From NCBI GenBank assembly GCA_040954595.2, contig CM082587.2:9739403-9803402 (forward strand): DNA of 64,000 nt. Reading direction: 5' to 3'. This DNA comes from Balanoglossus misakiensis. Its lineage: Eukaryota; Animalia; Hemichordata. This document shows positions 1,721 to 46,600 of this stretch, one piece after another (position 1 is the first letter of the stretch; the number at the start of each line of letters is the position of its first letter). Made by a program: the position numbers and the translations under genes. Under the pieces are notes generated by a model, which saw nothing but the letters and a program-made list of their open reading frames with translations, was not told the origin of the DNA and did not search any database.

Positions 1721-2900
1721 AGCATATCTGCTCTGGATGCCAAGATATGGAAAAGTAGGTCAAAGGTCACCTGAGGTTATGCAAAATTTGGGCAAGGAAT
1801 TTTGACCCTATACTGGTCCATGTTCAACAAAAACCAAACCTATAGCCCTATTGGTTAGCCTGGAATTAGGTATGCACATAATTAATGAGATATGCAGGTG
1901 TCACAGGTGACCCCCAATTTTGGCTTTTCAGTTTTAGTCCCAACCCTCCAAACGCCAAGTCTGTACCTTCTCTGGATGTCAAGATATGATAAAGTAGGTC
2001 AAAGGTCACCTGAGGTCATGCAAAATTTGGGCAAGAAATGTTGACCCTATACTGGTCCAGGTTCAACAAAAACCAAACCTATAGCCCTATTGGTTAGCCT
2101 GGAATAAGGTATGCACATAATTAATGAGATATGCAGTTGTCACAGGTGACCCCCAATTTTGGCTTTTCAATTTTAGTCCCAACCCTCCAAACGCCAAGTC
2201 TGTACCTGCTCTGGATGCCGAGATATAGGAAAGTAGGTCAAAGGTCACCTGAGGTCACCCAAAATTTGGGCAAGAAATTTTGACCCTATACTGGTCCATG
2301 TTCAACAAAAACCAAACCTATAGCCCTATTGGTTAGCCTGGAATTAGGTATGCACATAATTAATGAGATATGCAGGTGTCACAGGTGACCCCCAATTTTG
2401 GCTTTTCAGTTTTAGTCCCAACCCTCCAAACGCCAAGTCTGTACCTTCTCTGGATGTCAAGATATGATAAAGTAGGTCAAAGGTCACCTGAGGTCATGCA
2501 AAATTTGGGCAAGAAATGTTGACCCTATACTGGTCCATGTTCAACAAAAACCAAACCTATAGCCCTATTGGTTAGCCTGGAATTAGGTATGCACATAATT
2601 AATGAGATATGCAGGTGTCACAGGTGACCCCCAATTTTGGCTTTTCAGTTTTAGTCCCAACCCTCCAAACGCCAAGTCTGTACCTTCTCTGGATGTCAAG
2701 ATATGATAAAGTAGGTCAAAGGTCACCTGAGGTCATGCAAAATTTGGGCAAGAAATGTTGACCCTATACTGGTCCAGGTTCAACAAAAACCAAACCTATA
2801 GCCCTATTGGTTAGCCTGGAATTAGGTATGCACATAATTAATGAGATATGCAGGTGTCACAGGTGACCAATATTTTGGCTTTTCAATTTTAGTCCCAACC
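1721..2900 (+). repeat. ~240-bp tandem repeat array (satellite-like HINE core)
   Basis: Near-identical units at 240-bp period (lines starting 1861/2101/2341/2581). The interrupted unit resumes at 14122 (AACCCTCCAAACGCCAAG...). Confidence 0.95.
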
Positions 2901-2943
2901 CACAGCCGTATTCAGCCTGAATTCTAGTTGGAGTAAAGAAATA
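2901..2943 (+). repeat. Left TIR of the RAG1-like transposon (conserved block begins after 18 bp)
   Basis: CACAGCCGT-ATTCAGCCT-GAATTCTAGTTGGAGTAAAGAAATA. Confidence 0.92.
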
Positions 2944-3265
2944 CAAACTCACAAACCTTACCAAATTACATCGATAGAGGGCGATATTCATATGGCAATC
3001 CTGATCTGTGCTGTGGTCACAAATTTAATACAATACACATTTTAAAAGTACAAGTTTTAAAAAAAATGTATGTAGTTTGAAAATTTATATTATTTCACTT
3101 TTAAATTCATAGATTTTTTCAATTAAATTATATTTTTAATTAATTTTTTGGCCACGACCTTAAAAAATCATTGCTCTTGTTTTGTTGGACATACCATGTA
3201 CCATTTGGTGGGATCTGTTCACTGGATATACTAAAAAATATGACAATAGGGGATTGTATATATAT

Positions 3266-3296
<31 letters not shown>

Positions 3297-5393
3297 TAGA
3301 CACATATCTATATATATGTATATATGTAATATTTAGACACATGGGCACACACGCACACACTTATATAAATATATACCGGTATATATGTGTGTTCCGATCC
3401 ATACACTCACACCTCTATGAACTACATCCAAACATCACAAGAAATTATTACTGACAAAACTTGTACTTTTTTAACCATTTATTCTTTTCTTTAGCAAAGT
3501 GCATGCATATCACTTCATCTTAAACATTTAGCTGCTATCTTTGCGAGCCCTTTTCCTTATAGGTGGTTTAGGGTTTCCTGGGTGATTCCTGATATGATGA
3601 TCTTTCACCATGCACTTCAACCTGTCTACGTCATTTGGCATTGAGGCATAACTCCTCTCTGCTGTGTTGAAGTGATGGTGAATGACCTCAATACCTTGCT
3701 CACCTAGAAAACCCAGCCCCATATTTGTCATTTCAATTTGACTGACAACATGACATTCAAGAAGGTGCATCTTTGGAAACACAGATTCTTTAGGGAAATT
3801 TGATCTGTAATATTCCATGAGCCCTCGTATGTTGATACCTAGGAGAAAAAGAGAAAATATAAAATCCTTAGTGAGTGGTAATTTAAGAAATTGCAAGAGG
3901 TTTATCACTTTATCCACTAAACACTAAGGAATCCAAATGTAAAGAGTTACAACTACAACATGAACATACATATAAATGTAAACATCAAAATAAAATAAAA
4001 TACAATAAATATAAAAATCATACACTCAGAGAGAGAACAAAAAAGGTGAACACAAGAAAAAATACAAATACAAAATAAATTATCGTTGATTATCCAAACA
4101 AGAAAATAATACTTATTTTATGCAAACTTCAACATTGAATACATTTACAGCATGCAGCAACCAGGCTTCTAAATCTGCCCGTGGCTTCTCTGGTATAATT
4201 CAAGTATCTACAAACTGCCAAATAGAAAAAAAACACCATAGAACATGGTTAGTTCAAATACATTATAAATAATTGAACAAATGTGATTATCTTGATAAGA
4301 ATAGTCACCAAGCTCAGTTATTTCATCTTGGGTCAACCTCCTTGAAAGAGAATATGTGTTGTGGCATGATGCAAACAGTGTCAGTAATGGTTTGAATTTG
4401 TCCCTTATGGCCTCTGCATCAGTAATCAGTTCTGGTGTCATCTCCTCAGTACACTGTACCACACTATCAACAATGATGTTGATATTCTTGTCCTGAATAT
4501 GAGATGGAAAAGATCTTATGCTTAATAGGTGTACGTGTTTGCATGAATGCATGAATAAGAAAATGTCAGAAACAAATTGAAAATGTATTTGTGAATATCT
4601 ACAACAAAAGCAGAGTAAAACTAAATATTAATTTAACCTTTTCATTTCTAGGATTTGACCTGTATGAAATGAAAATACCAACAGGCAAGCATACAAGCAG
4701 CAGATAACTTACTGCCTTGGGGAAACTTAAAATTTTAAGAAAGCTGCATGCCATTGTTATCTACATAAAAAAATGAACTGGGGTCAAGAACCACAAATCA
4801 TGCCTTATTTTGCAGTTACTCTTATCCTCTGAAGTAAAACAATTTCTTCACTAGATTTAAAACTTGAATATTTGGGAAGCAATACAATATACTAGTATTA
4901 TAGAAACCTTGCAGCATGTGTTGACATGGTTTCCAATGAAAGACTTTCCATGGTAAGCCTGTCTGTACACATGAATTTTATTTAGACTCCTATCAAGTTT
5001 CCTGACTGTATATCCAGCATCCCTTGGTAAGTTTCCTTTCAGGCTTGCTGCATCCTCTCTCTGTGTGGAAACAAAACTGTCAGTGAAACTATTGCAAAGC
5101 TGAAGTATGAAATCAAAAGTAGCATGGTTATCCAAAAGACAGGTGAAAATGAGGTGAAAGACTAGGATTATGTCCAAAATAAATGTTTGTTTCTCATACC
5201 TCAGCACTTGAAATAACTATGGCAACAATTTTCCTGTTATGAGTACACATAAAATTTGGTTTTCTTTTTTCTGGTGTCATATGAAACATTATATTATTCT
5301 GTTTCTATTACAGCAAATAGAAAAAAAATCATTGACATGATCAAAACCTAGCATGAGAAACAAACACTGCAAAGTACTCTAACCCTAACCTTG

Positions 5394-8300
5394 TAGTCCG
5401 GCCGCCAGAGGGGTAAACCTTGTTTTGGCGTCTAAAGTTTTTTTTAAAGCGGATTCTGCTTGTATAGATCACCAAAGTGAAAAAAATTGTTACTGGAGCT
5501 CTGTCAGCATTGAGCAATTTGAATAAATTAGCATAATCAAAATGGCCGCCAACGTATTGCATTTTGGCTGAGAAAGAAGAGTCAAACGAACGTTATACAC
5601 CCTGTAGCTTTGTTTTTATCATTTATTTCACCAAGTTGTTGCTTAAGACAAACTAGAAAATAAATGTTGCCATTTATAATGAGCTAATTTGCATAATTTC
5701 AAGATGGTGGCCATCTGTGAACCTCTGTTTTTGTTGAATAACTTTTACATATGTATTTTGCTACGTGCAGTCATTTTAAAACATTTCTTATCACTGTTTT
5801 ATAATTCTGGCCACCTTAAATAGTTTTTCACTTTGTGCTAGAGGGTAAAATCCCATAATAATTGCATTATGGGTAAAAAGTAGACAATTCACTAGAGTAA
5901 TAGATAGAAGACATTATATGTTTAATGTATTTCATGACTTCCTTTGGTCAAACATTTCTGCTTTGAAGTTGACATATTAAAGTCAATCAACTTTTTTTAC
6001 ATTTAAAAATTTTTTTAGTTACAAAGTATCGGAATGACCGAATATCACTTTAGCTTATGAACTCCCATTTCTTAAACATGGCAAAAACTCGGCCATCTTG
6101 GAATTGTGTCGACCAGATGAGACTTTTATTACTCACCTGGGTAGCAAAAATCTATTTAAAGTCGGGAGAATTGCAAGTACATAAATCTTCTTTCGCAAAA
6201 TTAATGTTGATTATCATACATTTATCATGAGCAGCCAGGTAATCCTTCGCCCTTTCTCAAAGGCAACATAATGCCGTCATATCCAGTCCAATAATCATTA
6301 TCATACGAGGTAAAAATTACCAGCTCCAAGAAATAATTGATAATGGCAGTTGCTATATTTTATCGCCTTGAACTACTTGAAGTGGCCGTACCAGGTGTCC
6401 CGAATTGGACAACGTATCATGCGAGAATGTTACCCCAGTCAAGATTGACCAAAAGGAACAAACTAAAGTGTAATTTACCAAAATGCCAAACTATTATTGT
6501 GAGTCAAATCCAGAAATACTGTCACTTGCCATTTGAGTGACTGATGAGTCATATTTGGAATTACAAAGTCTCTTTAGATACCACTGAATTTCGTAAATTA
6601 TTCTGCGAAAGTCAGAGAATGTCTGCCTCAATTTCGTTTTAAAGGTAATAAGCTGTGTCTAATTTTAAATTCCTCATATTAGTTGCAAACTTTACCGCAT
6701 CTCGGGAGTTTTGTTTATTCATCACAAAACTTGGCAAACAATGACTCTTGAAAAACATACATACACATTGTGAAAACATTTCGAACATTTAAAAAGGGCA
6801 AGGATACACATGGAACATCAATCAACTCATATCGTTTAAAAGCTGAATGTTTGTGCCTGTTCAACCTGCAAGCTGAAACCTTTAAAAATGAACGAGGAGG
6901 AAGTTAAACTATGGTGATAAATCATGGATGTTGAAGGATCGATTGTGCAAGCTTTGCGAAATACCTGTTGATTATAAAAAAAACATTGCTAATTTCTAAC
7001 AGGAGTGCAGATTATTTTGGAACTGTCTTGTCTTTTCCAGCATTTTTTTACTTTTAAGGACAGATAGGCAGCAGTCAACTGAAGGAAAATGTTAGAACGC
7101 TTTAAATGAATGAATTTCCCTTTCTTATCTAAACGATGCCAATTTCCTTTAAAAATACAAACACTGCTCTTTCTCACTACAAAATACGTGTTGGCATCCC
7201 ATTTTAATGTATTATCAAAAATGGAGCCAAGGTATGTGTGAGTCGGGACAATTTCTACTTGATTTTTATAAAGGTCTTCTTGCGCATTCCTTCAGGTTTC
7301 TCAAGTTGTTTCTATAAATGAATTTAAAATAAGAAGCTTAACATCTTCCACACCAGTTCTTTTCGAAAACGCACATCAAAGGGATAGATCGGAAGACTTT
7401 ACAGTTTTATCTAGTGTTTTCAGGATAAAAGTGTGAACAGAGATTTGAATGTTGAAAGATCTCGTTCAGCTGATCAGTACATTATTTCGAGGCGAATCAC
7501 AAATGCGATCTGGGGACCAGTGTTTGTATTTAATTTCAGTGGTTATAGGGTTATAGCTGGTTATGACTACCCGTAGGTCACATATAGTAGGATAGTTCAC
7601 AATTATGAAATCGACGACTTATCTAAGGTGTTACTGGAACATTTACAAGCAATAGTTTTACATCATATTTCGTAGAGATTACATAAACTTGGCTCCATAT
7701 GGATGTATAGAAAGGTAACAGGAAGTTCAGCATTCTTATTATTTCAACATCGGTGTATTTACATTTGGCATCATTGTTGAAAAATATAGCCTGAGTTGTG
7801 TTTAATGACAATATGCTCATGCCTACGACTGCCACCAAAGAAAGCCTGTTTCATCAGTAATGTTAGTCTCTGTTGTAATGGGACAGTTTCCTTCCCATGG
7901 TGTTTATATAGGAATAGGAGGCTGTAGGTGTGTCCTGAATCATAAGAATGTTGCTAACTTTATTCATTATATCCTTGTCTAAAATTTGGCCAATGTTTAT
8001 TTTGTCCATCCCTTGTAAACAAATCTTAAAATCCCGGAAAAAACTCATGTTGACTAATGAGACATTCTGCTCGAACATTTTTAATAGGTGTATCTTTATC
8101 CGAGATACAGATAAAGGATATGTATACGGGTCTTTCAGGATTGCATACACTCATTTGGAAACACACAAATATGATCAGAACAATGTCTAGTACATTTTAA
8201 TGTACATTTCAATGTAGTTTATTGTAGTTTAGAGAATACGTTATAATCTGCGTTTATACAGTTCAACTTATAAAAAACAGTTAAGCTTTAAATAATCTCT

Positions 8301-9147
8301 GATCTACACTGTACTTCTAATTAGGTGTAATAAATGATATTGCCTGATAGTATATCAAGAAAACACTTATTTATGAATTTATGATAAAATGGCCAAAAAT
8401 GAAAGGAATATCAGTATAGTGAAACATTTCCGCAAGTTTTGTGCTATGAAAAATAAAAAATCTAATGTCTCAGTGGAGTACATTTACTTCCATGTGTTCT
8501 ACTGGATGAGATCATGCTTTGTTTATGAAGTTCTAAAGTGAGAAATGCAATGTTTTCATTGTATTTTTCATTTTACTACAGTGACGGCCATATTCCTTTG
8601 CGGCAAAGATTAACATTCATCTGGTTAAAACGTGTATGTAACTCATGTTTAGGGTTTACAATACTTGTATATACGTCATGGAGCGTTAACTTATGCAAAT
8701 TAGTATTTAAATATACTCAATTATGACAACTAACCTGTTTTCGCACTATAAAGGTGATTTCTATATCTCTTACATTGATAATTGAAATCATTTGGCGGCC
8801 ATTTTTTATGCTAATTATCTCAAATTGCTCAACACTGACGGAGCTCCTGTAACCATTTCTTTCACTCTTGTGATCTATGCAAGCAGAACCCGCTTTAAAA
8901 ACTCTGATGACACTAATACAAGGTTCGTCACAAAAAGCGGACTTGGCAGCCGGCCTATATATTGATAATTTGAAATCATTCGGCGGCCATTTTTTTATGC
9001 TAATTATCTCAAATTGCTCAACACTGACGGAGCTCCAGTAACCATTTCTTTCACTCTGGTGATCTATGCAAGCAGAATCCGCTTTAAAAAAAACTTTAGA
9101 CGCCAAAACAAGGTTCGGCAAAAAAAGTGGATTTGGCGGCCGGACTA
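5394..9147. mobile_element. Non-autonomous Academ-like DNA transposon inserted into transposase exon 7
   Basis: Termini TAGTCCGGCCGCCA...TGGCGGCCGGACTA with long imperfect TIRs; 3-bp TSD TTG (5391-5393, 9148-9150); ~190-bp subterminal tandem duplication at 8770-9120. TAG...CTA ends with a 3-bp TSD fit Academ. Confidence 0.8.
6100..8200 (-). pseudogene. Decayed Penelope-like retroelement fragments inside the Academ-like element
   Basis: Broken frames with peptides resembling invertebrate Penelope ORFs (INIGQILD...PTASYSYINTMGRKL, KYTDVEIIRMLNFL); many stops and frameshifts. Confidence 0.5.
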
Positions 9148-12100
9148 TTGGCCTTGGCACTTGCAATTAGCTTTTCCTGCACATCTGATGCTTTTGAAAT
9201 AGCAGCTAATGAAAGGGAATCATCATCGCTGTCGTCATCACTATCATCATCAAGAAGTTGTCTCTGAATGTTATTCTCCATGGCAGCAGCCCTGGCTTCT
9301 TGAGAGTCGGCCTCCCTTTCCAAGACAAGGGCCTCACGAAGCAATGACACATATGCATCAAAACGTGCTGGTTTGAAGACAGGTTCATCAATGTCGTCAT
9401 TTTTTTCCATAGCACAGAATATCTTAAGATCAAGTTCTGCACATGCATTTTCCAGCAACTCAAAAAACCTCTTATATAAGCCAAGGCTTATATGCAGTGC
9501 TGGAATTGCAACCTGGAAGCAAAACAAAATCAATGTAACTGTGAATAAAAAAAAATACTGAGTTAAGTAAACTTTAACAGGCCTATTTGGAATATACTGT
9601 CTGGCTACTTAGTATTCCCTCAACAATAAATGTAATTATTTATAGAGAAGATCATCAGTATACAGTTATGTTTTACATATTTTAGATTTTTTTGAGACAA
9701 ACCCAAGACCTGAAGTAGCATTCACAAAGCCAGGACTCAAACCCACTAAGCTAACTTCCCAAGCTAAAAAAAGACTTCTTCTTTAATTGCAATTTGATCC
9801 TGCATGTCTCCATCACATGTGCATATCATATGGTAAAGTGACAACTGGTAATGCTAGGAGCAAATAAAACTGTTTAACAACCAAGTCAAAATGACAATTA
9901 TTGATTAAACTGCACACCCTGTTTAGAGGAATATCAAACAAAGGCTTGTTGATACAGTTGTTGAACATCAACGCAGTCTTCTTATCACTCCCTGCTGCTA
10001 CATAGGCCTGGTTGTCAGCTTTCAGTTGCTCAAGGGACCGTTGTTTTATTTCTGGTCTGTCTCCTGGTTCACGCTTTGCTTCCTCCTTGGTAATAGTACA
10101 CCAAAGACAGAAATATCTGCCTAAAGACAAATTACCCATGAATTATTGCACATTTTGTACATTTGCTGAAAATAAATTATAATCATTCTTTTACATGGTA
10201 AATTACATATAGTGACTGGCTGACTGATAAACAAAGCTGCTGATAAACACTAGAGCACAATACTATTATCTAATAACTCCATCATTCATGAATGGAAAAC
10301 AAGTGATTAGTAGCTCACAATTGACTTATACCTTATGTGTACTTACCACTTGCACCTGATAACCCATAAATGGTTGTCAGATATTCATAGTCACCAGCAA
10401 GAAAAGGAATAACCTTCTTATCTCTATGGAAGAAAGGTTTGAAAGTTAAAGGCATGGTACATAGCATAAAACATGTTGAAATAACAAATATTCAGTTTGC
10501 CAGCACAGTCACTATGAGTATGGCCAGCACTGCTATTGTTGACAATGGAATTGATTTCAATTGTAAGCGATAACAGTGTTTGTTATACATACACTGGTTG
10601 TGCTGACAGAATCGATATTGTGTGTTTCAACATGGTATAGGGAACAGACAACACAGTGTTAGTTGAAAGAGTCAAGCTAAAAGTATCTGAAACAAATAAA
10701 AGTTACAGCTACATGTACTGAGTGTCAGAAAACCAGCCATTGTAAGAAAAGGTGTGCATCAGTTTGAATAGAGCTGAACAGGTATGTACAATCCTCTACC
10801 ATGGGTAATGCTGCAGAAGAGAAAACTATGACTAGATATTTTAATGCATAATTGAAATATTTGCATCATTTACATGTATATCATGTACTCACCTCCATGT
10901 GCAACTCTCTAATGAGTTGATTTGGTCTAAATTAACCTTGTAGGCAATCTCAAGGTTATGCCTTGTATCCGGTGCAGCAAAAATATTCCACACCACTGTG
11001 TTTTCAATTGAATTAAGGTTGGCAACATTACAAATCTGAAAGACAGATTTCATGCTGCCACCTCCCTTATCGCCCCCAACTTTACACCAGACTTCATCAC
11101 AGGGAATAGTGCTTTCCTGCCAAGTAAGTTTATTTTCTCTGAAATATAAAGTAGATTGATATAATAATATCAATATAATAAATGCATTACAAACATGGTA
11201 GTAAAAAATGTTGAAGAATGAGAATGAAAAGACCACGTGTACAAAATATTGTCTAAAATGTGAAGTGAAAGGTAGGTACCATTAGTCTATTGAAAATGTG
11301 TAAAGTAAGGTCAAAACAAAACATACTATTTATTTTTGACATTATATGATGTCTTTCATTTTTACGTCAATGAAGTTGAATGTTTACTCCAAATTATACT
11401 CCGTACCAGCATTCACAAGAACATTTTAGGGATAACTGAAAGTAAAATCCAAATTTGTTGATTATTCTCAATGTTACCTTTCCAAACACTCAAGCCTAGT
11501 AATGATTGCATCCTTCACATTCTCTATTACTACCAATGGTGCAAGTCTGATTTCTGTGCAGTGTTTGCCATCTGTTCCCCTCACTTTAAATGTGAAGGGA
11601 AGTCTTTCCGCAGAAAGGGGCAGGGATAGCGTTTCAGCAATTTCCCTGTCCCTTGTCTCTCCTTGGACATGTATGTTCCAATTTCGCAACCATCTGAGGA
11701 AAAAAATAGATTATGTTGAAATGCATGTGTACTTACCCATCCCATGACACATTGCCACTATTGACAGGTTTGACTGTACTAGTAAAATATGCTATAAAAA
11801 CGCTGGCATACACACCCACTTAATCCTTACCTCCTCAGTGCTCTCAACTTATTCCATGGTAGTGACAAACTGGTCTTTAGCATTAGACCAGCTCCAGGAG
11901 GAACATTAGGCAAAAGACCAAGGGAATGTAGTTCAGTCTTCCCAAATCTGCCCAGCTCCCGCCTAACCTGTTGTGCTACCGCTTTGCTGTCACCTGACGC
12001 ACCTGACGCACTTTCTCTTGTCTTCTCTACAATGGTTGCTCGATGTGCCTGTGTACGAGTTGATACTCTGGTGGAATCCTTCGCTGCCTTTGGGACATAC

Positions 12101-14069
12101 ATCAGGTGAATAGGCTTATGGGAGAAAAATGACACACGCAAATATTTTATTAACATGGGGACATATGTAATGCAGGTAAATGGCCTTACTAGGAAAAATT
12201 ACACACAAATACATATGTCATGCTTAAACATATCAGATATGTCAACAATTGAACATTGTGACAATATTACAAAACACTATAACTACTTATTCATTCCTAC
12301 TACAGTAATAATAATTATGACATTAATTTCAAATCAACACTGTTTTTTCCTTACCTTTGATCTAGTTTTGAATGTTATCGCCTCTCCCTTTCTAGAGCCA
12401 GGGGTTTGTTCCAGTTTCAGTTTGATTATTTTGGTTGCCACTGTATCGAAACCAGCCATCTTGTCGATTTTTTCAGAACAGTTAGCAATGGTGTCAAGTG
12501 CTTCTTGTGGGGATATAGTACTGGTTGTTTTCACGGTCTCTGGCTGGTGTACCGACCCATTCACATCAATGTCAGTGTCATTGCAATTTACATGTAATTG
12601 CTGTTGCTGTTCAGGGAGCTTGGCTGACGCATAATGATGATCATGGGCAATTGATGTGTAGGGGCAGCTTTCAAAATGGCCTTTCAGATCCCTCAATGGC
12701 AGTTCTCTAGTACATCCCCAATTACTATAATCGCAGTGTATTGTTAGTGAACTTAGGATATTTCCCAACATGACTGGAATCGAAGCAACTAAATTGCTGT
12801 CTATTGTAACCCGACAGACAGGACATGTTGGGGAAACTTTGAACCACTCTGCCAAGCAGGGGGAACAAAATGTGTGGGGGTTAGCACACAGAATTTGGAC
12901 AGGCTCGTCCACAATTTCTTTGCAAATAGGGCAATCGAGTTCTTGGCCAATATATGTGCTGTGAATGAATCGTTGTGGAGACAGTCCCAGTGAACACCTA
13001 AACCTCTTGCCTGCTTTGGTCTTTACAACATTGACGAAATCTATATCAACGGGTGTGTCAGTTTGACTTTGAGTTCCTGAACCCAGCTTCCTATCATCAG
13101 AGTCATGAGGAGTAGACACGATATTTAACTTTTTTTTTCACGTCCTCGTTTCGTCTGTTTTGGTTTCCTTCCGGGTCGAGACCGAAGGCAAACATCACAC
13201 TCACCGTTTCGCGGATGTTTTTTCCACAATGTCACCTTCGTTCTCGGGCTATAGCTAGCTGTACTGGCCTGTGTTACATGTAAACAGTAGTCGACTGTCC
13301 GCTTGCAATTCTTGCAGAAACTATTTGGATGAACTGTCGATTCGTCGTTGTTTACGTCAACATTGAACGTATCGCGCAATTGGGTTTGGAAGCTCTTACA
13401 CGCGTACGAAGTACTGACGATTTTTGTACCACAAATTCTACACAGTGTTGAGATTAGACCCAAATGTGCATCCAAATCTTTCTTGGTGGCCATATTTTGC
13501 TTCAAAGATGATCTGTATTTTGATTTTGGCGCCACAGACACCGGTAACAGGTAGCGTATAGACGCCGTGACCATGGTGACATTGAGTCAATTTACGTCAA
13601 TCACAATCACGAACTCTACAGAAAGTGTAATTACGTAGCCACACGCTAAATTCCGAAGCCACACCAACACTACAAAACGATCGTACATACAGCAAATTAC
13701 CCCAGAAATTTGTTATTTACGTTGTGAAAATTGATTTAATTTTAAATCAAGCTCAAAAAAATACACATCATAATCATGCTCACCTACAGATCGCACGGCT
13801 ACCGTGAAAAAAATCGCCACTAACGCAACCACAAAATCACACTTTGAGGCGATTGCAGTACATCGGGAAGCCAGCAAAATATCAGTGAGGTTGTTCGGAC
13901 ATCTTCGGAAACCAATTATACTTAGCAAATGTCACGATTATGTCCATATTAGGTAGTTACCCCGCCCAGAACTTGCTTCGTCCGATCGGCGGCAATTCTC
14001 AAAAAACATGTGATCGAAATCCCGCCGCGAGTTCTCCCTATACACGAGATCTCGTGCGTTTGACATTGT

Positions 14070-14121
14070 TATTTCTTTACTCCAACTAGAATTCGCCTTA
14101 CGTACGATATTAACAGCCGTG
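14070..14121 (-). repeat. Right TIR of the RAG1-like transposon (conserved block begins after 27 bp)
   Basis: Reverse complement: CACGGCTGT-TAATATCGTACGTAAGGC-GAATTCTAGTTGGAGTAAAGAAATA. Confidence 0.92.
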
Positions 14122-14888
14122 AACCCTCCAAACGCCAAGTCTGTACCTGCTCTGGATGCCGAGATATAGGAAAGTTGGTCAAAGGTCACCTGAGGTCACC
14201 CAAAATTTGGGCAAGAAATTTTGACCCTATACTGGTCCATGTCCCACAAGAACGAAACCTCTAGCCCTATTAGTTAGCCCGGAATTAGATATGCACATAA
14301 TTAATGTGTTAAGCAGGTGTTACAGGTGAGCCCAAAATTTTGCCTTTCATTTTGGCCCCATTGTGCTCACTGACCAATAGACAGTCACTGTACAGGACTA
14401 TTGCACAGACCAGAATTCCACAATAAGATGTGGACATAGCTTAACCATAGAGGTATAAGTAAAGGTATAAATTTAATAAAAAGACTAAAAAATTCATAAA
14501 AAATAAAACATCGATGATATTAACTCAACACTTACAGGTCGATGTGAGGTTGACATATGGTACATGCATACCAATTTTTAAAGCAATCTGACGAGTAGTT
14601 GTTGACTTTCAGAGTTTTGATAAATTTCACATTTTTCCAGCTAATTTGCATATTTTTGGGCCTGGCAACTTTGTTTGGACAAACTCCCATCTACAGCCTA
14701 GCCTGCACCTACACACCAAATATTGAGGTGATACGCGCAGCGGTTTTCAAGTTTTTGATGTGGACGGACATACAGACATACATCCATCCATCCATCCATC
14801 CATCCATACATCCATACATACATACAGACGCAACCGATCCCATAAGGTCCCATGGTATATATGCCTATACCAATGGGACCTAAAAAAA

Positions 14889-29226: not shown

Positions 29227-29730
29227 AGGCACGTAAGCTGTAACTTTTGGGATAATTTTCATAATTTTTGTTTCACACTGCACTACCATTAGTCCATGCA
29301 GATGAAGGCAGTGAACTATACACAAGCATTATAAACCCTAAATATGAGTGCATATGCCAGTTTTAACCAGATAAATAATAAAGCTTTGCCGCAAGCGATT
29401 ATGGCCGCCACTGTGGGAAAATGAAAGAAACAATGAAAATGTCGCATTTCCGGTTGTGAAACTTCATAAACAAAACATGATCTCATCCACTTGAGCTCAT
29501 GGAAGTAAATGTACACCACTGAGACATCAGATTTTCATTTTTCATTGCAATATTGCACTTTTTTAAAAATTTCAGGAATTTTCGTTTTTCTTTAATTTTT
29601 GGCCATTTTGTCATAAATAAGTGTTGAGCTTGATATATTATCATGAAATAGCATTTAATAGATATAATTAAAAGCATATATGAGATTATTTAAAACATTG
29701 ATTTTTTATCCAGTTGCAGCTTACGTTCCT
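29227..29730. mobile_element. Kolobok-type non-autonomous element
   Basis: TTAA|AGGCACGTAAGCTG...CAGCTTACGTTCCT|TTAA; second copy at 49267-50360 and a diverged reverse copy at ~8280-8700. Confidence 0.8.
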
Positions 29731-30860: not shown

Positions 30861-32760
30861 ATGGTAAATTATTGTAATGTATACAAGTGCTGTAATCGAT
30901 CTGATAGGCAGTCTGATCGAAGTTACTTTAGACTTTCTGCTGTGATAACAAACCAAGGCGAAGTTTGCCAAGATTTGTCAAGTCGACGCCGCCAAAAGTG
31001 GTTGGCAAACATCGACCAAGACTTTGCCAGAAAAAACCTGGCAAACATTCGGGTTTGTTCAGATCCTTTCATTGGAAGTAAGTAAAATTTGACACATGTT
31101 CTTTTCTGGCATTAGCCTGACATGCAAACTGTTTTTCTAGTTGGTCTGCTGAATTTTTTTGTTGTTTTGAAAACAAAAAAGAAATACGCGTCGGCCGGCG
31201 GCAGCAGACGACAGTGTGCGTTGCGTAGCAACACCTACACAACTTTTGATAATAACCTGACTGTTGACCTCGAATGACCTTCTATGCGAATGCCAGGCAT
31301 ACTTAGACTGAACTTTCTGCAGGAAATAGTGGAATACTGGATAGTTTGTGATCAGTGGATATATTTCTGATCCAAATAAAGTAACTATAAATTTGCATAA
31401 AAAAATATTTATGGTCTTCTTTTATTATTGTTTTATTTAAATCTAAAAGTGATCTTGTCATAGATTTCCTTGTCCACAAAAGTGTTACACGTACCACTAA
31501 ACCTTATACCATATCACTACAGGAAAACCAGCAGACCTGTATGATTCCAATAACCCTGACTGGGCACCAACTATAGATATGGGAAATCATAAAGTCCTGT
31601 CAACACCAGTGTCATGCCAAAAAAGATATATAAGACAGCAGGAAAGAGAAGCGAAAAGAAGGGTAGTCGTTAGTGTATCAGCTACAGATGAAGCACCAGC
31701 TGCATGCCAGGATGGTAGTACTGGTAGCAACAGACGAGATATGGGAACACAAACATATATTGATGGAATTCTTTTTGACAGAAGAATTGCAACAGTTGAG
31801 ACAAGAGAAGATGGACTTACAGACTCACATACTTGGTCGGTCCAAGTCATTTTCAGACTATCGTCTCGATGACTTGAGCAATGAAGATGAAAAAGTAAAA
31901 TTTTGACAGGTTTGTCATCCTTTCTGGTGTTCTCCACGTTATATAATTATCTTGAGCCATACCTCCCAAATAAAAAATCAATGACCAGATTTCAAATTTT
32001 ATTTATGGTACTTATGCGTTTACGTCTGAATTTGGCTGAGCAGTTCCTTGGTTATGAGTTTCATGTTTCACAATCGACAATTTCTAGAATTTTTTGTGAT
32101 GTCATTAATGTATTGTATGCCAGGACAAAACATTTTGTTTTCTGGCCTTCACGTGATGTTCTTCAAAAGACTATGCAACTTGAATTTGTCAGATATTTTG
32201 GAAGGAAGATTGCTGTAATTATAGATTGTTTTGAAGTTTTCATTGAGAGGCCATCAAATCTTATGGCCAGAGCCCAGACATGGTCGTCATACAAACATCA
32301 TAATACTGTTAAGTTTTTATTAGGTATAACACCACAAGGTGCAATTTCTTTCATTTCAAAGGCATGGGGTGGGCGGGTCTCAGATAAATTCATTACAGAA
32401 CAATCAGGTTTTTTAAAAATATTTTACCAGGAGATGTTATCTTAGCTGACAGGGGTTTTAATATTCATGATTCACTTGGAAGTATATGTGCATCAGCTAA
32501 AATACCAGCATTCACCAGAGGGAAAAATCAATTATCACCCCTTGAAATAGAAGCAACCCGAAAAATAGCCCACTGCAGAATTCACGTAGAAAGAGTTATT
32601 GGTAGTGTCCGTCAGAAATATACAATTTTAAACAGCACTCTCCCCATTGATTATCTGACGACGAGGGAGGAGCAAAGATTATCAATGATTGACAAAATAT
32701 GTCATGTAAGCTGTACACTTACAAATTTATGTGAGCCCATTGTAAATGTTAAAAAGTAAA
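30861..32760 (+). pseudogene. THAP-domain DDE transposase (ISL2EU), frameshifted
   Basis: THAP MVNYCNVYKCCN...W...RVCSDPF (His replaced by Pro); intron ~31078-31522; [13 protein letters not shown]...[49 protein letters not shown]. Frameshifts near 31850-31905 and ~32415. Confidence 0.88.
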
Positions 32761-33457
32761 ATAGTTCACAAATGTTTCTCAATGTCAGACTTGACCATTA
32801 AATTTTTAAATTCCTTTGCAGTTCTTGTAATTACTCAGCCTAGCCGGCTGTCACAAGACATCGGTATTTCATTGTTATATATATTCCGGAAATATTTGGA
32901 AAGTTCTAGAAGGTCATTCGAATGTCAAGTTCTGGAGTTGTTCTGGAGTCGCGTTGAGCGATTGTACCAGCAGAGTGAATAAAGTTCACTGGTGTTTTCA
33001 CGGTGAAGACTTGCTATTGCGATAGCCTGTGTGTCTCCTTCAGTGTTACAGGGAGGTATGGCTCAATATTTTCTGTACTTTTGTCAACTCTTTTCTCGTT
33101 CTAGTAAATAAATACGCCACGTTGGCTTTTGCACTTTACTTTTCTTGTTTTGTGCACTCCCTCATTCAGGTGTATGGTTGTTACCCTTATTGATCAAACA
33201 TTTTGTTATTCTATGTCCCTTGTGAGAACCTTCCAAAAACATAGATTTTGATAGAATGATTTAGAAAACATCATTATATTGTAGAGAGGGTGTGTGTGTG
33301 AGGGCGTAATAACAACTGTAAGGTCAGGACACAATAATGTTTGATGCCAAATATGTGTTTTATTGCACTTCATGATTCATGATGTGACAATGACAATGTG
33401 ACAACATTTCTGTTGTCAAAGTTTTCCATCATCTTTCCATTACTGTCTATTAAAACA

Positions 33458-34722
33458 TTACTTCCTTCGACGATGAAACTGTGGAAGCTTTCTGCAATCA
33501 GGACAATACAATTTTTGGGTTTTTGGTGCCCTACTTATCTTTAAACATTCAAAATGAAACCACTTTAATTGGCAGTTTTCATTATCACAACATACCATGT
33601 TCCCTGATTCAAATTGCTGACAGTAACAGTACAGGTTATCGTCATTGGAATTCGCACCAATAGTGCTTGTATTTGGATCAATTCTTTTTAGAGTATTGTC
33701 AGTATTCGGTAACTTTGAGTAAAATTTCCCAACTAATTTTGGAAGAATAGCTGTTCTAAATATGTGTTCAGCCTTTTCACATGCAAAAGTCTCTATCAAA
33801 CTGGATAACCTCAACATGGATATTCTTTTCAGTCCAAACCACAAAATAGCCAAAATCATACTGGCAAACTCCCAATTGTGTCTGGACCTGATAGTAATAT
33901 GCATGCTTCTTATCTAATTTGAGAATGCCATCATCCTCTTTTTGCAAACAAAAACCACTACTGATGGCATCAGGTATTTCACTATCTCTTTTACAGTAGG
34001 GACATTTTATTTCAAGGCACCCCACTCCACAACAGTCACACGTGTCAATCCCATCAGGGGAAGCTCCCAAATGTGGCCAATCAGGGTTAATAATCAAACC
34101 ACAATCCTTTACCAAAACATTATCATGTTGCTTTGATATGTCAAATATGAATTTCTCTCTTGCTGTTTTTTCATGCTTGCAACCCCAAGTTGTGGCTTGT
34201 GAAAAAAACTTTATACTTTCTGGATGACAGATGCTCATGATTAAACTATGAGATGGGCTAGCTGGATCAGTATGGCATACTGACTTCATTTTAGATGCAG
34301 TTACTCTGCCTTCTCTGAAATGAAACCACAACTGAGAGTTTGCCTGATCACGTGTATTTCTTTCAACAGCTGCAGACTGTTCACTGATCATTTTTCAGTG
34401 ATGTCAAATTAATAGGAAAGTTATCACTAGAAGACTTCGGTAAGTAATCATCACAATAAGGGGAAGAAGTTGTCAAAATTGCTGCACGTGTGTTGGTACT
34501 TTGGAGTTCTCTGTATAACTCTGCCATATCCAGCTCAGATGCAAGTGGAACAGGGGTTGTATCACTAACACATGCCTGATTTACTGCCTGATTTACTCTA
34601 TCACTGGAACCCTCAAGCGAAGAAGTCAAAAGTTTCTTTTTCGATTTTGCGGACGTAAAGTCTATATCACACACTTCTCTATATTCCACTTTTTGTACTC
34701 CTCTCGGTAGCAGCCAATATCC
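33458..34722 (-). pseudogene. YqaJ/lambda-exonuclease plus C-terminal PHD finger (ISL2EU accessory gene), 5'-truncated and frameshifted
   Basis: TRDQANSQLWF..R.GRVTAS, HLGASPDG, LEIKCP, YYYQVQ.QL; PHD LYCYCQ...MVCCDN..C..KWFHFECL...YCPDC; split over three frames. Confidence 0.88.
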
Positions 34723-34896: not shown

Positions 34897-36360
34897 TCAG
34901 CTATCGTCACTCCACTCCTGAAGAAACCGTCCCTGGATTTCAATATACTCAAGAATTATCGCCCTGTTTCCAATCTTCCATTTCTTTCCAAAGTACTCGA
35001 GAAGATCGTCGCGGCTCAAATCACTGACTACCTCACCAAAAACTCTCTCCAGGTACCATTACAGTCAGCATACAGAAAATACCACAGTACAGAAACTGCA
35101 CTTCTGAAAGTACACAACGACATCTGTTTATCCGTGGACTCTGGCAACTATGTTCTTCTCATCCTCCTTGATCTCTCCGGTGCTTTTGACACAATTGATC
35201 ACAATATACTACTTCATCGACTCTCGCATCTTGGTATCTCCGATGTCGCACTCAAAAGGTTCACTTCATATTTAAAGCAACGGGAACAGTCTGTTAAAAT
35301 CAATGATGTCATCAGTGAACCATCAGAACTCAGCTTCGGCGTCCCTCAGGGCTCAGTTCTCTGGCCTCTCTTGTTTACTATCTACATTGCTCCACTATCA
35401 AATTTGATACACAAGCACAATCTACATTTTCACCAGTACGCAGATGACAACCAGCTTTATCTTTCATTTTCTCATCATGACTCTCCCGCAGCCCTGACCC
35501 TGTCTTCGATTGAAACCTGCATTCTCGACATCAAGGAATGGATGACCCATAATAAACTCCAGCTTAATGTCAGTAAAACCGAAGTCCTTCTGATTCGCTC
35601 CAAGTTTAACACGTCACCAGATCCTATTAACAGTGTCAACATTGGTTCCACTTCTGTCACACCAGTCTCATCTGCTCGCAATATAGGCATGATCTTCGAC
35701 AGTAATCACATGTTCAGTCAGCACATAAAGTACACCTGCAAATCGATCTACAGTCACCTCCGCCGAATTGGATCTATACGACGTTACATCACCAACGAGA
35801 CTTGCCAAACCTTAGTACATGCAACTCTATCTGCCAAACTTAACTACTGTAACTCACTCCTGTATGGTCTCCTAGAAAACACAATCGCCCTACTTCAAAG
35901 AGCTCAGAATACTTCAGCCAGAATAGTCATGCGCACTAGGAAATTCACGCCTATCACTCCAGTTCTTGCCCAGCTCCATTGGTTACCAGTTCGTCTCAGG
36001 ATCGACTACAAAATTTTGTTGATAACTTTTAAAGTTATCCATAACCAGAATCTGTAGCCATACACTCCCACTCGTACACTGCGTTCATCCACCAAGAAAC
36101 TCTTAACATACACAACCTACAAAAACAAGACCTATGGCGGCCGTGCCTTCTCCTATGCAGCCCCTAAACTGTGGAACGCACTACCTCTTGACATCAGGGA
36201 ATCAACAAACCTGGAGACTTTCAAAAGAAAACTGAAAACTCATATGTTCGAAAGAGCATACAGTGTGGTTTAACCATGTGCGTCATTGGGCAAAATTTCT
36301 TGTTTTGGATTTTGGCGCTATATAAACTTTGTGTTGATAGATTGATTGATTGATTGATTG
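34897..36360 (+). mobile_element. 5'-truncated CR1/L2-clade LINE reverse transcriptase
   Basis: NYRPVSNL, QSAYRKYHSTETAL, LDLSGAFDTIDH, GVPQGSVL, YADDNQLY, LHWLPV; (GATT)n 3' tail; probable TSD GAGAATTAA (34888-34896, 36360-36368). Confidence 0.92.
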
Positions 36361-40604: not shown

Positions 40605-43600
40605 AAGATTGGTAATAAAATTTAAAAAAAAATCAATGTGTCATTTCTTGCTATGTTTGTCGATGTTGTAGATAACTGTAAAAAAAAAACCCAACCATAA
40701 TCGTGGAAAACACGACCTAGGTCGCCGAATGTCACTACCGTATGTAAGACGGTAGTGACATTCGGCGACCTAGGTCGTGTTTTCCACGATTATGGTTGGT
40801 TTTTTTTTTTACAGTTATCTACAACATCGACAAACATAGCAAGAAATGACACATTGATTTTTTTTTAAATTTTATTACCAATCTTAACAACAACAACAAC
40901 AACAACAACAACAATAATAACAACAACAACAACAATAACAATAACAAAATTACTGAGTTCCCTGTGTAGACACTAGTAAACTGAAGAATTTTGAATATGT
41001 CATGTTTCTGATCAGGGAGTTTATCTATTGACATCAGCAAGCCACATTGAGCTCTGTCTCTCATTTTTAGCTCTGCTGTCAGCGACAGGAACTTTTCAGA
41101 TAGGTGGACTGTCAATTATCTGGGGCAATCATAGTATTGACTGCTATGTCCCAAGGCTAATGGCATAACCCAACGTAATTTAAAGCACGACTGTGCACTG
41201 TTTATTGTTCACAAATCCCTGTAATGACCGGCCTCACAACAAACCTGGCCCTGTGCACAATGAACCCGGCCCTGCATTGCATTAAACTCAGTCATGAGTA
41301 CCAATCAGGAAGTAAAATATTCACTGAAGTATAATGTTTAATAAGAAGCATAATGTACTTTAAAATCAAAAATACATGAGTAAAAATATTCACTGAAGTA
41401 TAATGTTTAATAAGAAGCATAATGTACTTTAAAATCAAAAATACATGAGTAAAAATGTTCACTGAAGTATAATGTTTGTCAAGATATCTACACCTTGTTA
41501 TATTCTAAAACAACATTTCCATTAGAAATACAATCCACATTTCTTGAAGTAAACATATATGATTCTATACCCATAATTTTACCTATAACATTTATTATAT
41601 TATACAAAATTTAAAATAAAAAATACATGAGTACCAATCAGGAAGTAAAATATTCACTGAAGTATAATGTTTAATAAGAAGCATAATGTACTTTAAAATC
41701 AAAAATACATGAGTAAAAATATTCACTGAAGTATAATGTTTAATAAGAAGCATAATGTACTTTAAAATCAAAAATACATGAGTAAAAATGTTCACTGAAG
41801 TATAATGTTTGTCAAGATATCTACACCTTGTTATATTCTAAAACAACATTTCCATTAGAAATACAATCCACATTTCTTGAAGTAAACATATATGATTCTA
41901 TACCCATAATTTTACCTATTTCATAATATTAAAATATCAAGAATATTTGCATTGTAAAAACGTTTCTGGGAATTAAATAAGGCGAAAACCTTATTTACAG
42001 AATTTTACAACATTTTCTAAATTCAAACAAAACCGTTATACTCGTAAAAGTCGTTTACTCACATGTCAACAAACGGGATGGAAGTTGTTTATGGCTGAAC
42101 GATCATTCAATACATATACACATGTACATTAAGCAAACAGTGTCTAGTATCAAACATAATTAATGGAAGGGGCAGCGAGAGAGAAAGACTTTTTCCTTTT
42201 AAACTAATGAAATGCTTTCAAACATCCTTTTAATTTCCTCTGTGTATAACATTGCCGTACCACGTCTATGCATGTCATTATTTGTATCGTATTGTAACGA
42301 CACCATAAGTTTGCCACTTAAGCCTGCGATTCCTATCGCGCAAGTGCCTAAGAGTGTACCCCTCGTCCCTCTATGGATTTTCTCAACACTGACTTTGCGA
42401 TCATTGTGACATTCCAGAAAAGTAAGCTGTCCTGCATTAGATATGTATAAGACATCTTTAATGGAATTGTTTTGCTGTTTAGCAAGCTGGATTAATTCCC
42501 TAGTTCTGTCATACTGGAATTCTGTTAACTGTGATATTGGTGGTGGACCCGATACTCTATCGTCAAGATTTTCTTTAAGTCGCCTTGCCAGTTTCCAGAA
42601 ATATTCATCCCCAATCGAGGCTTGATTTACATTTGTTGTCAATTTTTCTGTAGTGTTGTAAAGACCCAAATCTGTAAAATTTTCTTTGAAATGCTTTCGC
42701 AATGTGCGGGCAACATCCAACTTAACATCCATGGGTTTTCCATCATTAACTATTTTAGCAAAAGCTGATAAAAACAATGCTAATAATGTTGAATTGAGAT
42801 TAACATTGTGTTGTCTTGTCAGTTGCTTCAATTTTGATAGCAAATTCTCGGATATCTCAAAAGTAATACATTTTGTTTCGACATTCGTGTCATAATCATC
42901 AGAAATATCTGAAAAGCATAATGGCGGTGCCGATTCCACCAGCATTTTATCGTTGTCTTTCTCAGTTACACTTATAGTCTCTGGTGTTGCAATCAAATCT
43001 TGAGCTGCTCGAGGAAACGGTACTCTCTGAATTCTTTGCTGAATGTTTGTCTCAAAGGATCCGTCCACAATGTCATTCAGATTTTCCACGAATTGATTCA
43101 CATAGCTACTGGCACCAACACCATCTGTAAGTGAATGGTGAAACTGAAACGTCACAGCAGCCTTGTACGACTCACGATCGCCAGTGTCATTCTTTGTCCA
43201 CTCTCCTTGTAAGATTGTACAGTTCCACAAAGGGCCTTGGAGGCAGTTGATGGCATTGCTTCCAGATCGAGAAATGGCAGTTCCCACATCGTCGTTCACG
43301 GTTAGACCTGAAACACGAAGATCAACACTTCCGCCGTTTGTCATCTCTGCGAAACACCTGTCAGTTTCTCTGCCGTCTTCATCGTGCAAAACGATAACTC
43401 TTGAACTCAATGCACTATGTTTCTTACGTAGGTTATCAAGTGCCTTGTGAACAATGTCCTTAGTAATTTCAACTTTGCAATTCAATTGCAAGTGTATTAC
43501 AACGGGCCAGAGACGGTATTGTGAAAAGACGTCGTACATACGTTCGGGCGCGTTCATTTTCCGGAAATATGGCGCCAGTGCTGTGCGATCATTTGTGCCC

Positions 43601-46600
43601 TGTGAAGTGATGAATCGCGGTATTTGCATGGCTGCTGCGAACTTCCCATGTCTTGCAAGCACTGGGGCTTTGGTGATTGCCTGAGCACGTAGAATGGCAA
43701 GGAACATTTTTGTCTTATTTCTTTACTGTATATGGCTTGGTGACGGACAATATGATGACGACAGCTTTTTACTTTGCTGGAGATAAACTGGGGGCCGATA
43801 ATCTAACAGTTGCAATGCCGATGACGGTGAAAAAAATCGTCCTAGAGAAACAATATGGACAGAATGACACATTAATTAACAATGAAATATTTTTTTCATC
43901 AAAATGGTATTTGTATTACGAATATGTAGCTTTTGCACTTCACATATGTTGTTTCATTCTCGTGATTGGTTGGTTTTCATTTCTGTATCATTGTTTAATA
44001 TGTACGAATCTGAATATTTGGTGTACCTTGATTAATTTACCCCAGCAAAATCGGTGGGGTTGGAATAATTATATTTCACACATTTATTAAACACTCACGC
44101 TTATAAAGCATGCGGTCGGCTATTTGGGAGTGGCACTAAGACCTTGCTTGACTCGGTAATCATTTCAAGCCACGGTCGCCTAGGCAAATATATTCTTAGA
44201 CGTACACCCAAAATACTAAACAATAAGTTTCATTTACCGAGAGAAAAACAAAGATTCCAAGTTTGTCTTAAGAAGTTCTACTTCAACACCTGGTTTTGAG
44301 AGAGAACTACTTTCTGAGTTTTGAAGGTATTATTGCAACCCACGGCATGATTTTGGATGCGCTTCTGTGTTCAGCACAAGCACCAGAAAAAGTCTCCCAC
44401 TGACTATCGCCCTATACTGTCCAAAAAAACGTGTGTACGGTTAACTTTAAATCTACAAAACTTGGTACAAAATATGAATAAGTCACTTGCACCTTACCTG
44501 AATCTCGAACAGAGAAGACTTTTGTCAACGAACCTGTTGATGAGAAAGTCGGATCGAAAATGACAACGTTTTATTTAAAATGCGCATTATATGACATTCA
44601 CAAACATGTACGATCAAGTTAGAATGAACATTGTAATATGTTTATATAATGTGTTGTAATAATGCGAAGAAAAGCTTTTTCATTTCAAGTAGTGAATGGG
44701 CCGGATACATGATTAATGGCCATTGATATTTAAATCATTGTCATTGAACTTGATGGAACAATGCTGAATGGCAATCACTTAAAATGCAAAGCATTTTGTC
44801 CCATTCATATACATTATCTGTACAAAATTGTTACCAGACCCAAGTGTGCATACATTTTTATGCAAAGTGTCCGTCACGTGGTTAAAATTTCGAAAGATTG
44901 CTACCATGAGGATTTATTGTACATTTCCAACCAAAAGCTTATTTTTAAATCTTTTAGTTTACACATGTGCGATGTATGTTTCTTAGTTATTGTCAATTTG
45001 GAATTATCCCAAATATAAAGTCACCAAATGAAACGCTATTTGACAAAATGACAGTCATTGACACCTGAACTGTTTCATGAATGTAGCGACAGGACGGTGC
45101 TTCAAGGCACACACACACAACATATTGGCTAAATGACGTATTTTTAGAGATCACAATTCATGACCAACCCTCCCCCCTCCGCTGATTACTGGTAAACATG
45201 GTAATCAGATCTGGTACTGGCCAACTGCCGATTATGCAACTATCAGTATAGGACAACACAAAGTATTTTCACTCAAACATTCCAACAGCACTTGCTAAAT
45301 GGAGAGCTGATCACATTTCATTTCATTTGTTGGGCCTGTAACTGACAGAAAATGATGGCTCAAAGTGTAGTTTGAAATGGTTTCAATGTGGCTTGCGGTA
45401 TGTTGGACTATTTGAAAGGTCGAGTTGAAAACATAAGGAGGGCATATAAACTTTGTATAAACTTTGAAGTGTAGTTTAATTCTTTGCTATCGATGCTATA
45501 GACTGTTCTGCAACGCATGGAAATAGAATTGCCCAGGTTCTGGGTTATTGATGAAGTACTGAAGGTGATTGCACTGTAGTGATGGCTGCAGACCCTGTGG
45601 TGGTGGATCATTCTAGCATCTGAAATTGGTAGACACAAATGTGAATATGCTTTTATGACAAAAGTGTTAATGCTGCTCAGCAAAGGATACATGTATGCTT
45701 ATAGGTATTAATTCTGCATGTCACCCTCAGCTACATATCAAGCAATATGCTTCATAAATCATTCTCAGTCATATTTTTGTAATAACCTCGCACGTGTGTG
45801 TGTGCGTGTGTACAATGTATGTATGTTAGCCCTGCATACAAATCTGTGTGTTCCCGGCGTTACACGGCCTGCACCACGTGTAACGCCGGGAACACACGCA
45901 TACACAGACCTGTATGCAGGGCAAAAAAAACCCAAAACCACACAGCTATTATAATTGTTACAAAAAATTATACTGATTTACTGAATGGCAGATTTTAGAT
46001 CGGGTAACTTCGACTAAACCAAAGCAGTAATTCTTATAACATATTCACACTCAGTTAGGTGGTTATTAATGACCACTACACTCTGTTTCAACTTGTAGGT
46101 GAATTTTACCCAAAATGCAATGTCACAGTATGATTTGACCACCTATAAGCAGAAGTAAAATATTTCAGGATGTGTGAAATAACTCACTAACTCTGTGAGT
46201 TACACCAACATGGGTAGTCAGTCACTCATTACAAAGAATTCTCATCCACAGTTTGTAGTATTTGGAATATAGTCTGCTTCGTCTTGTGATGTTTTTAGTG
46301 TCACTGTTCAAACACTTTGATGCAATGGCTGCTTGTAACAGCTACAACCACCCTGCAAGGTGCATCATCTGTCAGTGCCATACCAGTGGGGCTGTACAAC
46401 TGATCTTCATCTCTGTCAATACGACAAACAAACTTACCACCACTCTCAAACTTCAGTATGCTACTCGGGCTGTCAGTACTAACATACACATATTTATCAT
46501 TCTCAATGATTATTCCCCTGGGGTCTCTCAGCTGACCATCCCCACTCTGACAATCAAAGGAATACAAAAACTGGTCATCTGAATTGAACACCTGGATACA

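Follow-up and report, generated by a model that had tools for sequence, protein, structure and literature searches.

Chapaev elements, the closest described relatives of the element reported here, have CAC...GTG termini (PMC4079192) and an N-terminal Chapa domain that is followed by a RING in two subgroups (PMC4411706; motifs in PMC1131882). The RING-bearing subgroups, which fall in the CMC/CMCT clade and carry DUF1280, are treated in PMC4411706, PMC4079192, PMC12730594, and PMC3985635, the last of which equates DUF1280 with Chapaev. In a 64,000-nucleotide stretch of the genome of the hemichordate Balanoglossus misakiensis (contig CM082587.2, positions 9,739,403 to 9,803,402; hereafter the window), we examined an 11.2-kb DNA transposon at positions 2901 to 14121, a broken RING-bearing Chapaev cut-and-paste element, distantly akin to the recombinase RAG1, with CAC...GTG ends, one of which is short and the other long. 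Most related elements with both ends have ends that likewise differ by about one helical turn, and on balance we favor the reading that a transposase dimer binds, and prefers, one short and one long end.

Ends of this kind recall V(D)J recombination, where the recombination signal sequences (RSSs) pair under the 12/23 rule. Authors disagree on where this rule came from: it has been linked to RAG2 (PMC4840297), to a Transib "seed," called the only other transposon with 12/23 asymmetry (PMC8355894), and to the ends of RAGL-A (bioRxiv 2023.08.20.553239). Among RAGL elements, ProtoRAG's terminal inverted repeats (TIRs) are given as 27/31 and those of PflRAGL-A as asymmetric by 10 bp (bioRxiv 2023.08.20.553239), while AanRAGL has spacers of 4 and 13 bp, the same 9-bp difference as the window element (PMC9435367). 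TIRs resembling 12/23 signals are described for Transib5, Transib2_AG, and TransibN1-3_AG (PMC1131882) and for Subgroup I Transibs (PMC9435367). Since they have already been published for Transib, asymmetric ends without RAG2 are not new in general. For Chapaev, the literature that we searched, which stopped short of the Repbase consensus ends and the 2007 Repbase report, yielded no account of asymmetric or RSS-like ends, and a long/short design at the level of the family has apparently not yet been described.

Short and long ends in the window element and its relatives

The original prediction for this DNA had noted heptamer-like termini, an inner block identical at both ends, and spacers of 11 and 20 bp after a 7-bp terminus, all of which were reproduced. 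CACAGCC lies at 2901 (+) and CACGGCT at 14121 (−), and a 25-bp block is 100% identical at 2919 to 2943 and 14070 to 14094, that is, at offsets of 18 and 27 bp from the ends. The count of 11 and 20 depends on where the block of identity begins; if the motif that relatives conserve is taken as the reference instead, the offsets become 20 and 29, corresponding to spacers of 13 and 22 bp from the 7-mer. The two ends agree at seven of their first nine bases, so they have more than a 7-bp terminus in common. Only 1 in 20,000 random pairs of 60-mers from the window gave an inverted exact match of at least 25 bp. The block does not occur a third time in the window, where the closest further sequence differs from it at 7 positions, and the exact block had no match in the viral_contigs collection. 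The element interrupts a 239-bp satellite, and four intact units of this satellite match the joined flanks at 39 to 40 of 40 bases, which makes the element boundaries and the 4-bp duplication of the target site (TSD) certain. Because the joined unit is identical to its four neighbors at 223 to 232 of 241 positions, the insertion is at most as old as the divergence of the satellite and, judged from these alignments, is young relative to it.

Relatives were gathered as 80 loci kept from 125 confirmed metagenome stretches, plus two from genome contigs; many were too short to include ends, and those with both ends share 23 to 85% protein identity. They conserve a 10- to 11-bp terminus, CAC[AG]G[GC]NGTTT, and a pairwise TIR scan of 46 loci performed without knowledge of any motif, noisy for long flanks, revealed an inner motif of the CAYTTAG type. 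Searching for the terminal pattern with TAGT placed the latter at offset 24 in 6 of 67 upstream candidates and at 34 to 35 in 8 of 44 downstream candidates, compared to at most 2 at any offset among 71 wrong-orientation controls. An end profile was then applied with the seed family left out and the spacer free to vary from 12 to 45, over rows that include sister copies. Scores of at least 14 were reached by 19/118 locus ends and 0/122 wrong-orientation controls, with 17 of the 19 at offsets 20, 30, or 31; at a threshold of 12, the numbers were 32/118 and 3/122, and 25 of the 32 lay at 19, 20, 30, or 31. Counted from the 7-mer, the spacers of the relatives are about 13 and 23 bp, close to RSS geometry. 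As a background, 25 of 190 end-pattern matches in viral_contigs fell at 19, 20, 30, or 31 (chance, 4/31) versus 9 of 10 in Chapaev loci, a contrast that is partly circular because the pattern was derived from the same loci; these scans of viral_contigs retrieved no transposase-bearing loci.

Both ends were found in 13 loci, of which 7 are flanked by an exact 4-bp TSD and none by a 5-bp match. Once sisters were merged, 10 distinct both-ended elements remained, and 8 of them pair a short end (offset 19 to 23) with a long one (30 to 31), the differences ranging from 8 to 11 bp and mostly being 10. The 5′/3′ offsets are 20/30 in L014, L027, L059, and L070/L071, 19/30 in L080, 23/31 in L075, and 30/20 in L001 and L003, next to 29/20 in the window element. 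None of the 10 has symmetric inner-motif offsets. The original prediction had taken the asymmetry for design rather than decay; these counts support it, and a check of the related elements for symmetric or variable ends left it largely intact.

Several loci deserve separate mention. L019 (5554 to 13537) and L052 (6114 to 18580) are two copies of one family, each with a TSD of its own; the family has a TIR of 20 bp that is almost perfect, and its 5′ inner motif is degenerate. In L023, a candidate 5′ end at 66 to 93 consists of the 7-mer, a 12-bp spacer, and ACAAAAAGT, which is identical to the RSS nonamer at 7 of 9 bases and stands exactly where a 12-RSS has it; neither the 3′ end nor the TSD of this locus is present, and the match may be due to chance. 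The Chapaev-type transposases L081 and L082, found on short contigs binned to bacterial metagenome-assembled genomes, probably represent eukaryotic contamination.

Relative to the gene, the long end is 5′ in the window element, L001, and L003 and 3′ in the remaining short/long relatives. A hand-collected table of ends had the motif at 30 in 0/16 5′ ends and at 20 in 0/12 3′ ends. The three 5′-long elements form one side of a tree split (Shimodaira-Hasegawa-like approximate likelihood ratio test support of 96, 18 rows; the trees comprised one from FastTree and a smaller one), so a single flip of polarity suffices and several independent flips are rejected. Since these three elements have reversed polarity and yet pair unlike ends, neither the 5′ nor the 3′ side dictates how long its end is. 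Blocks identical from end to end are longer in the 5′-long elements, with 25 bp in the window element, 11 plus 10 bp in L001 (62 to 5197), and 13 bp in L003 (138 to 4366), compared to at most 10 bp in 5′-short families; conversion or inversion between inner blocks may account for this.

Transposase and placement of the element

A single gene with ten GT-AG exons runs on the minus strand from 13493 to 3528 (Table 1). It is broken twice, by a frameshift in a run of nine A's, possibly an assembly error, and by a 3754-bp nested element within the final codon of exon 7, and the window copy is dead as a result of the two. When the exons are joined with an X at the frameshift, they encode 1059 amino acids (aa) with no internal stop. 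The Chapa domain in exon 1 matches RAG1_imp_bd (E = 1.1e-14) and the RAG1 CND structure (E = 3.8e-8). The catalytic triad is likely D570, D640, and E1007: in the family profile, the glutamate stands opposite RAG1 E962, and the two aspartates are those that we take to be catalytic from the likeness of their motifs to RAG1. The nearest protein is an uncharacterized one from Ptychodera flava (P0154; 64% identity over 906 columns), and the nearest named proteins come from acorn worms. A more distant relative (P0152; 35% identity) has a predicted fold like the RAG1 core (Z = 28.8, root-mean-square deviation [rmsd] of 4.3 over 453 aligned residues, 15% identity). P0152 and P0156, P. flava proteins in the range of 1029 to 1089 aa, are family members that are intact in nature. 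Where RAG1 has its nonamer-binding domain (NBD), the exon-2 region is predicted to be helical. A homolog search with the last exon retained none of 20 candidates, a PDB search with the same exon returned chance matches only, and none of 12 candidates held up in a scan of viral_contigs with the transposase protein.

These features place the element in RING-bearing Chapaev; the trees comprise the DUF1280-type relatives found here. It shares with this group the CAC...GTG termini, a 4-bp TSD (AACC, with four empty sites; published range, 3 to 4 bp), and a single transposase in which an N-terminal Chapa domain and RING precede a DUF1280-type DDE core with C(2)C, LH, and H(4)H motifs. It differs in its short/long bipartite ends, which the portions of the Chapaev descriptions available to us do not mention. 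Chapaev3, described with 3-bp TWA TSDs and listed TIRs of 11 to 19 bp, is rejected on the TSD AACC. In its account of a RAG2-less, Chapaev-type enzyme, the original prediction is supported by the Chapa domain, RING, DUF1280 core, 4-bp TSD, and absence of RAG2, whereas its label "RAG1-like transposon" overstated the kinship, as the core is DUF1280, the TSD is 4 bp, and neither RAG2 nor a CCGHC tail is present.

As described, RAGL elements have in common with the Chapaev elements here bipartite asymmetric TIRs differing by 9 to 10 bp, RAG1-type N-terminal zinc domains, and the core fold; they carry RAG2L, 5-bp TSDs, and mostly a CCGHC tail, all three absent from the window element. There is no room for a RAG2-like gene between the TIRs, the element being filled by exons, short introns, and the nested insert, with no open reading frame (ORF) above 267 aa, and the final 45 residues of the transposase contain one Cys and no CCGHC tail. 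Membership in RAGL/ProtoRAG is thus rejected on the missing RAG2-like gene, the 4-bp rather than 5-bp TSD, and the missing tail. Transib is likewise reported as a RAG2-less, RAG1-related, single-gene group whose ends have CAC at the terminus and spacers of unequal length before an inner motif. Its TSD is normally 5 bp, its nonamer is A-rich, and it lacks a Chapa/RING head, whereas here the TSD is 4 bp, the inner motif is of the CAYTTAG type, and the head has both Chapa and RING. Transib membership is rejected on the Chapa/RING head and the 4-bp TSD, a verdict carried by domain content because some Transibs are reported with TSDs shorter than 5 bp. In relation to V(D)J RSSs, the CAC start is shared, and the second element stands at 19 and 30 in RSSs versus 19 to 20 or 29 to 31 here; the conserved terminus is longer (10 to 11 bp), and the inner motif of the relatives, CAYTTAG, is not a nonamer of the RSS type. 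The layout itself is of the 12/23 type, with a conserved second element at spacings one turn apart and one spacing per end, apart from L019/L052 and L049 and with a weak motif match in the window element itself.

Nested insertion and other features of the window

The main features are collected in Table 1. The element nested in exon 7 contains no ORF longer than 149 aa; its ends resemble those of Academ, its possible superfamily, and a literature search brought no confirmation of this. It carries a 189-bp tandem duplication of its own subterminal repeat and a repeat of about 390 bp with further copies at 29317 to 29694 and 49362 to 49714. The satellite (238 to 239 bp) forms several arrays, at 444 to 1034, 1731 to 2900, 14126 to 14443, and 50680 to 50962, and the copy near 50.8 kb is inverted and diverged.

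Elsewhere in the window, a DDE_Tnp_4/HTH fragment (+, Harbinger or ISL2EU-like) faces a YqaJ exonuclease fragment (−) at 31891 to 34394, an arrangement that suggests a two-gene transposon. An RVT_1 reverse transcriptase fragment at 34897 to 36054 belongs to an element resembling long interspersed nuclear elements. Three frames lie on the minus strand: a frame of the TRIM-NHL type that carries RING, filamin, and NHL domains (46304 to 47710), a 507-aa frame with a weak condensation-domain match (42202 to 43722; E = 1.9e-4), and a 658-aa frame with no Pfam match (60265 to 62238).

Table 1. Coordinates of the Chapaev element, its gene, and its insertion site in the window
Feature	Position	Strand	Description
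Satellite, 239 bp	1731–2900	+	Host repeat and insertion target; interrupted unit continues past 14125
TSD, left copy (AACC)	2897–2900	+	Single copy in empty sites at 1926, 2165, 2404, 2643
Short end	2901–2943	+	3′ relative to gene; CAC terminus, spacer, 25-bp block; family inner-motif position 2921–2928 (offset 20)
Last exon	3528–3838	−	H(4)H motif, catalytic Glu (GEQGIE, likely), stop codon; no CCGHC tail
Exon 9	4309–4492	−	GT-AG, in phase
Exon 8	4908–5060	−	
Nested non-autonomous element, 3754 bp	5394–9147		TAG...CTA termini, 13-bp perfect TIR, 126-bp imperfect inverted repeat, 3-bp TSD CAA
Exon 7	9148–9512	−	LH motif, acidic helical insertion; final base at 5390, past nested element
Exon 6	9918–10120	−	C(2)C motif
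Exon 5	10347–10423	−	Second catalytic Asp (AGDYE, likely)
Exon 4	10893–11138	−	First catalytic Asp (GGDKGG, likely); Pfam DUF1280, E = 8.2e-11
Exon 3	11478–11693	−	
Exon 2	11831–12114	−	Helical basic region at RAG1 NBD position; start of dimerization/DNA-binding domain
Exon 1	12355–13493	−	Chapa zinc domain, RING finger, zinc finger; frameshift in 9-A run at 13130–13138
Long end	14070–14121	−	5′ relative to gene; CAC terminus, spacer, 25-bp block; family inner-motif position 14085–14092 (offset 29)
TSD, right copy (AACC)	14122–14125	+	

How the unequal ends may be used

Because most both-ended relatives share the layout, the enzyme likely pairs a long with a short end, in the manner of RAG. 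By analogy with its kin RAG1 and Transib, each catalytic subunit would take hold of a CAC terminus and cleave at that point, after which insertion would follow with a 4-bp stagger. More tentatively, the helical region ahead of the core may act like the hinged nonamer-binding dimer of RAG1 and grip the inner motif on both ends; a hinged dimer holding both motifs would need one spacer to be a turn longer. RAG2 would have no part in this. Known systems provide precedents, as ProtoRAG prefers its own asymmetric pair (PMC8289069) and the NBD is reported to enforce the 12/23 rule in RAG (bioRxiv 2023.08.20.553239).

A number of observations weigh against such pairing. At offsets 20 and 29, the inner motif of the window element, ATTCTAGT, scores −2.5 on the profile of the relatives, and neither offset is the best-scoring one at its end; with so low a score, the link to the family motif rests on position and the shared TAGT. 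The two window ends rank 3 and 6 among 1950 CAC sites. The seeds of the profile had been chosen visually among these very loci. Two families with valid TSDs, L019/L052 and L049, combine a long 3′ end with the lack of a clear 5′ inner motif, and the L019/L052 family is the best counterexample to a strict pairing rule. Offsets depart from the pattern in L075 (23), L035 (36), and L041 (13), and L022, L026, and L055 have variant 5′ motifs. Since a single polarity flip suffices, the related elements are not independent trials. With one copy of the window family and a difference of mostly 10 bp in relatives, the 9-bp value may be private. As for the presumed grip on the motif, sequence searches of the exon-2 region gave no RAG1 match. 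RAG1 accounted for 6 of 9 Foldseek rows obtained with the exon-2 model (predicted local distance difference test score of 88), all with E values of 1.7 or worse, and the VIA comparison matched exon-2 residues 13 to 71 to RAG1 395 to 454 (Z = 3.4, rmsd of 4.4, 57 aligned) at rank 14, tied with unrelated chains. Finally, the requirement for 12/23 is reported to disappear in RAG1 without RAG2, and RAG2 had to be present for HzTransib to use a 12/23 pair (PMC4840297).

This last point also speaks for the main rival, which we consider rather unlikely: the asymmetry would be real and inherited, but each end would be read alone, the inner motif being a binding site in a fixed helical phase (20 or 30, on the same face) with no requirement for unlike partners. 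A shift of one turn preserves phase, invertebrate RAGL is proposed to depend on the terminal 15 to 17 bp (PMC7204232), some families without the 5′ motif still transpose, and a single flip accounts for polarity. However, if helical phase were all that counted, symmetric 20/20 or 30/30 elements would be expected to arise easily through end conversion, and none of the 10 both-ended elements is symmetric; in the window element, the spacers have remained unequal although the 25-bp block is identical. The motif could also serve as a host-factor site or as a promoter or 3′ signal of the element, its offsets simply inherited. It is unlike the RSS nonamer, transposase binding at the motif is presumed by analogy, and the likeness of exon 2 to the NBD is tentative. 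Such a role appears very improbable, given that the motif occurs inverted at both ends, keeps a constant distance to the cut site among elements whose proteins are less than 35% identical, and persists when polarity is flipped with respect to the gene. Hardly credible is a private decay of a once symmetric TIR in the window copy. That copy is dead, its family is known from it alone, and its difference is 9 rather than 10 bp as in most relatives, but relatives share the short/long layout, the insertion appears young relative to the satellite, and the spacers cannot be aligned as a simple indel next to an inner block free of mismatches.

Preferential pairing of one short with one long end is put forward here for Chapaev as a hypothesis and not as a result, and the window copy is dead and only one example. 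Being abundant, free of RAG2, and dependent on a single protein, Chapaev at large would allow a direct test of an end-pairing rule. It lies outside Transib and RAGL yet has RAG1 N-terminal domains, and a conserved long/short layout in it moves the design deeper. It is quite possible, although we lean against it, that a short/long rule of RSS-like geometry (about 13/23) is imposed by Chapaev transposases with no help from RAG2; in that case, the whole Chapaev-Transib-RAG lineage would have the 12/23 architecture from its ancestor, and this architecture would belong to the RAG1-type protein only.

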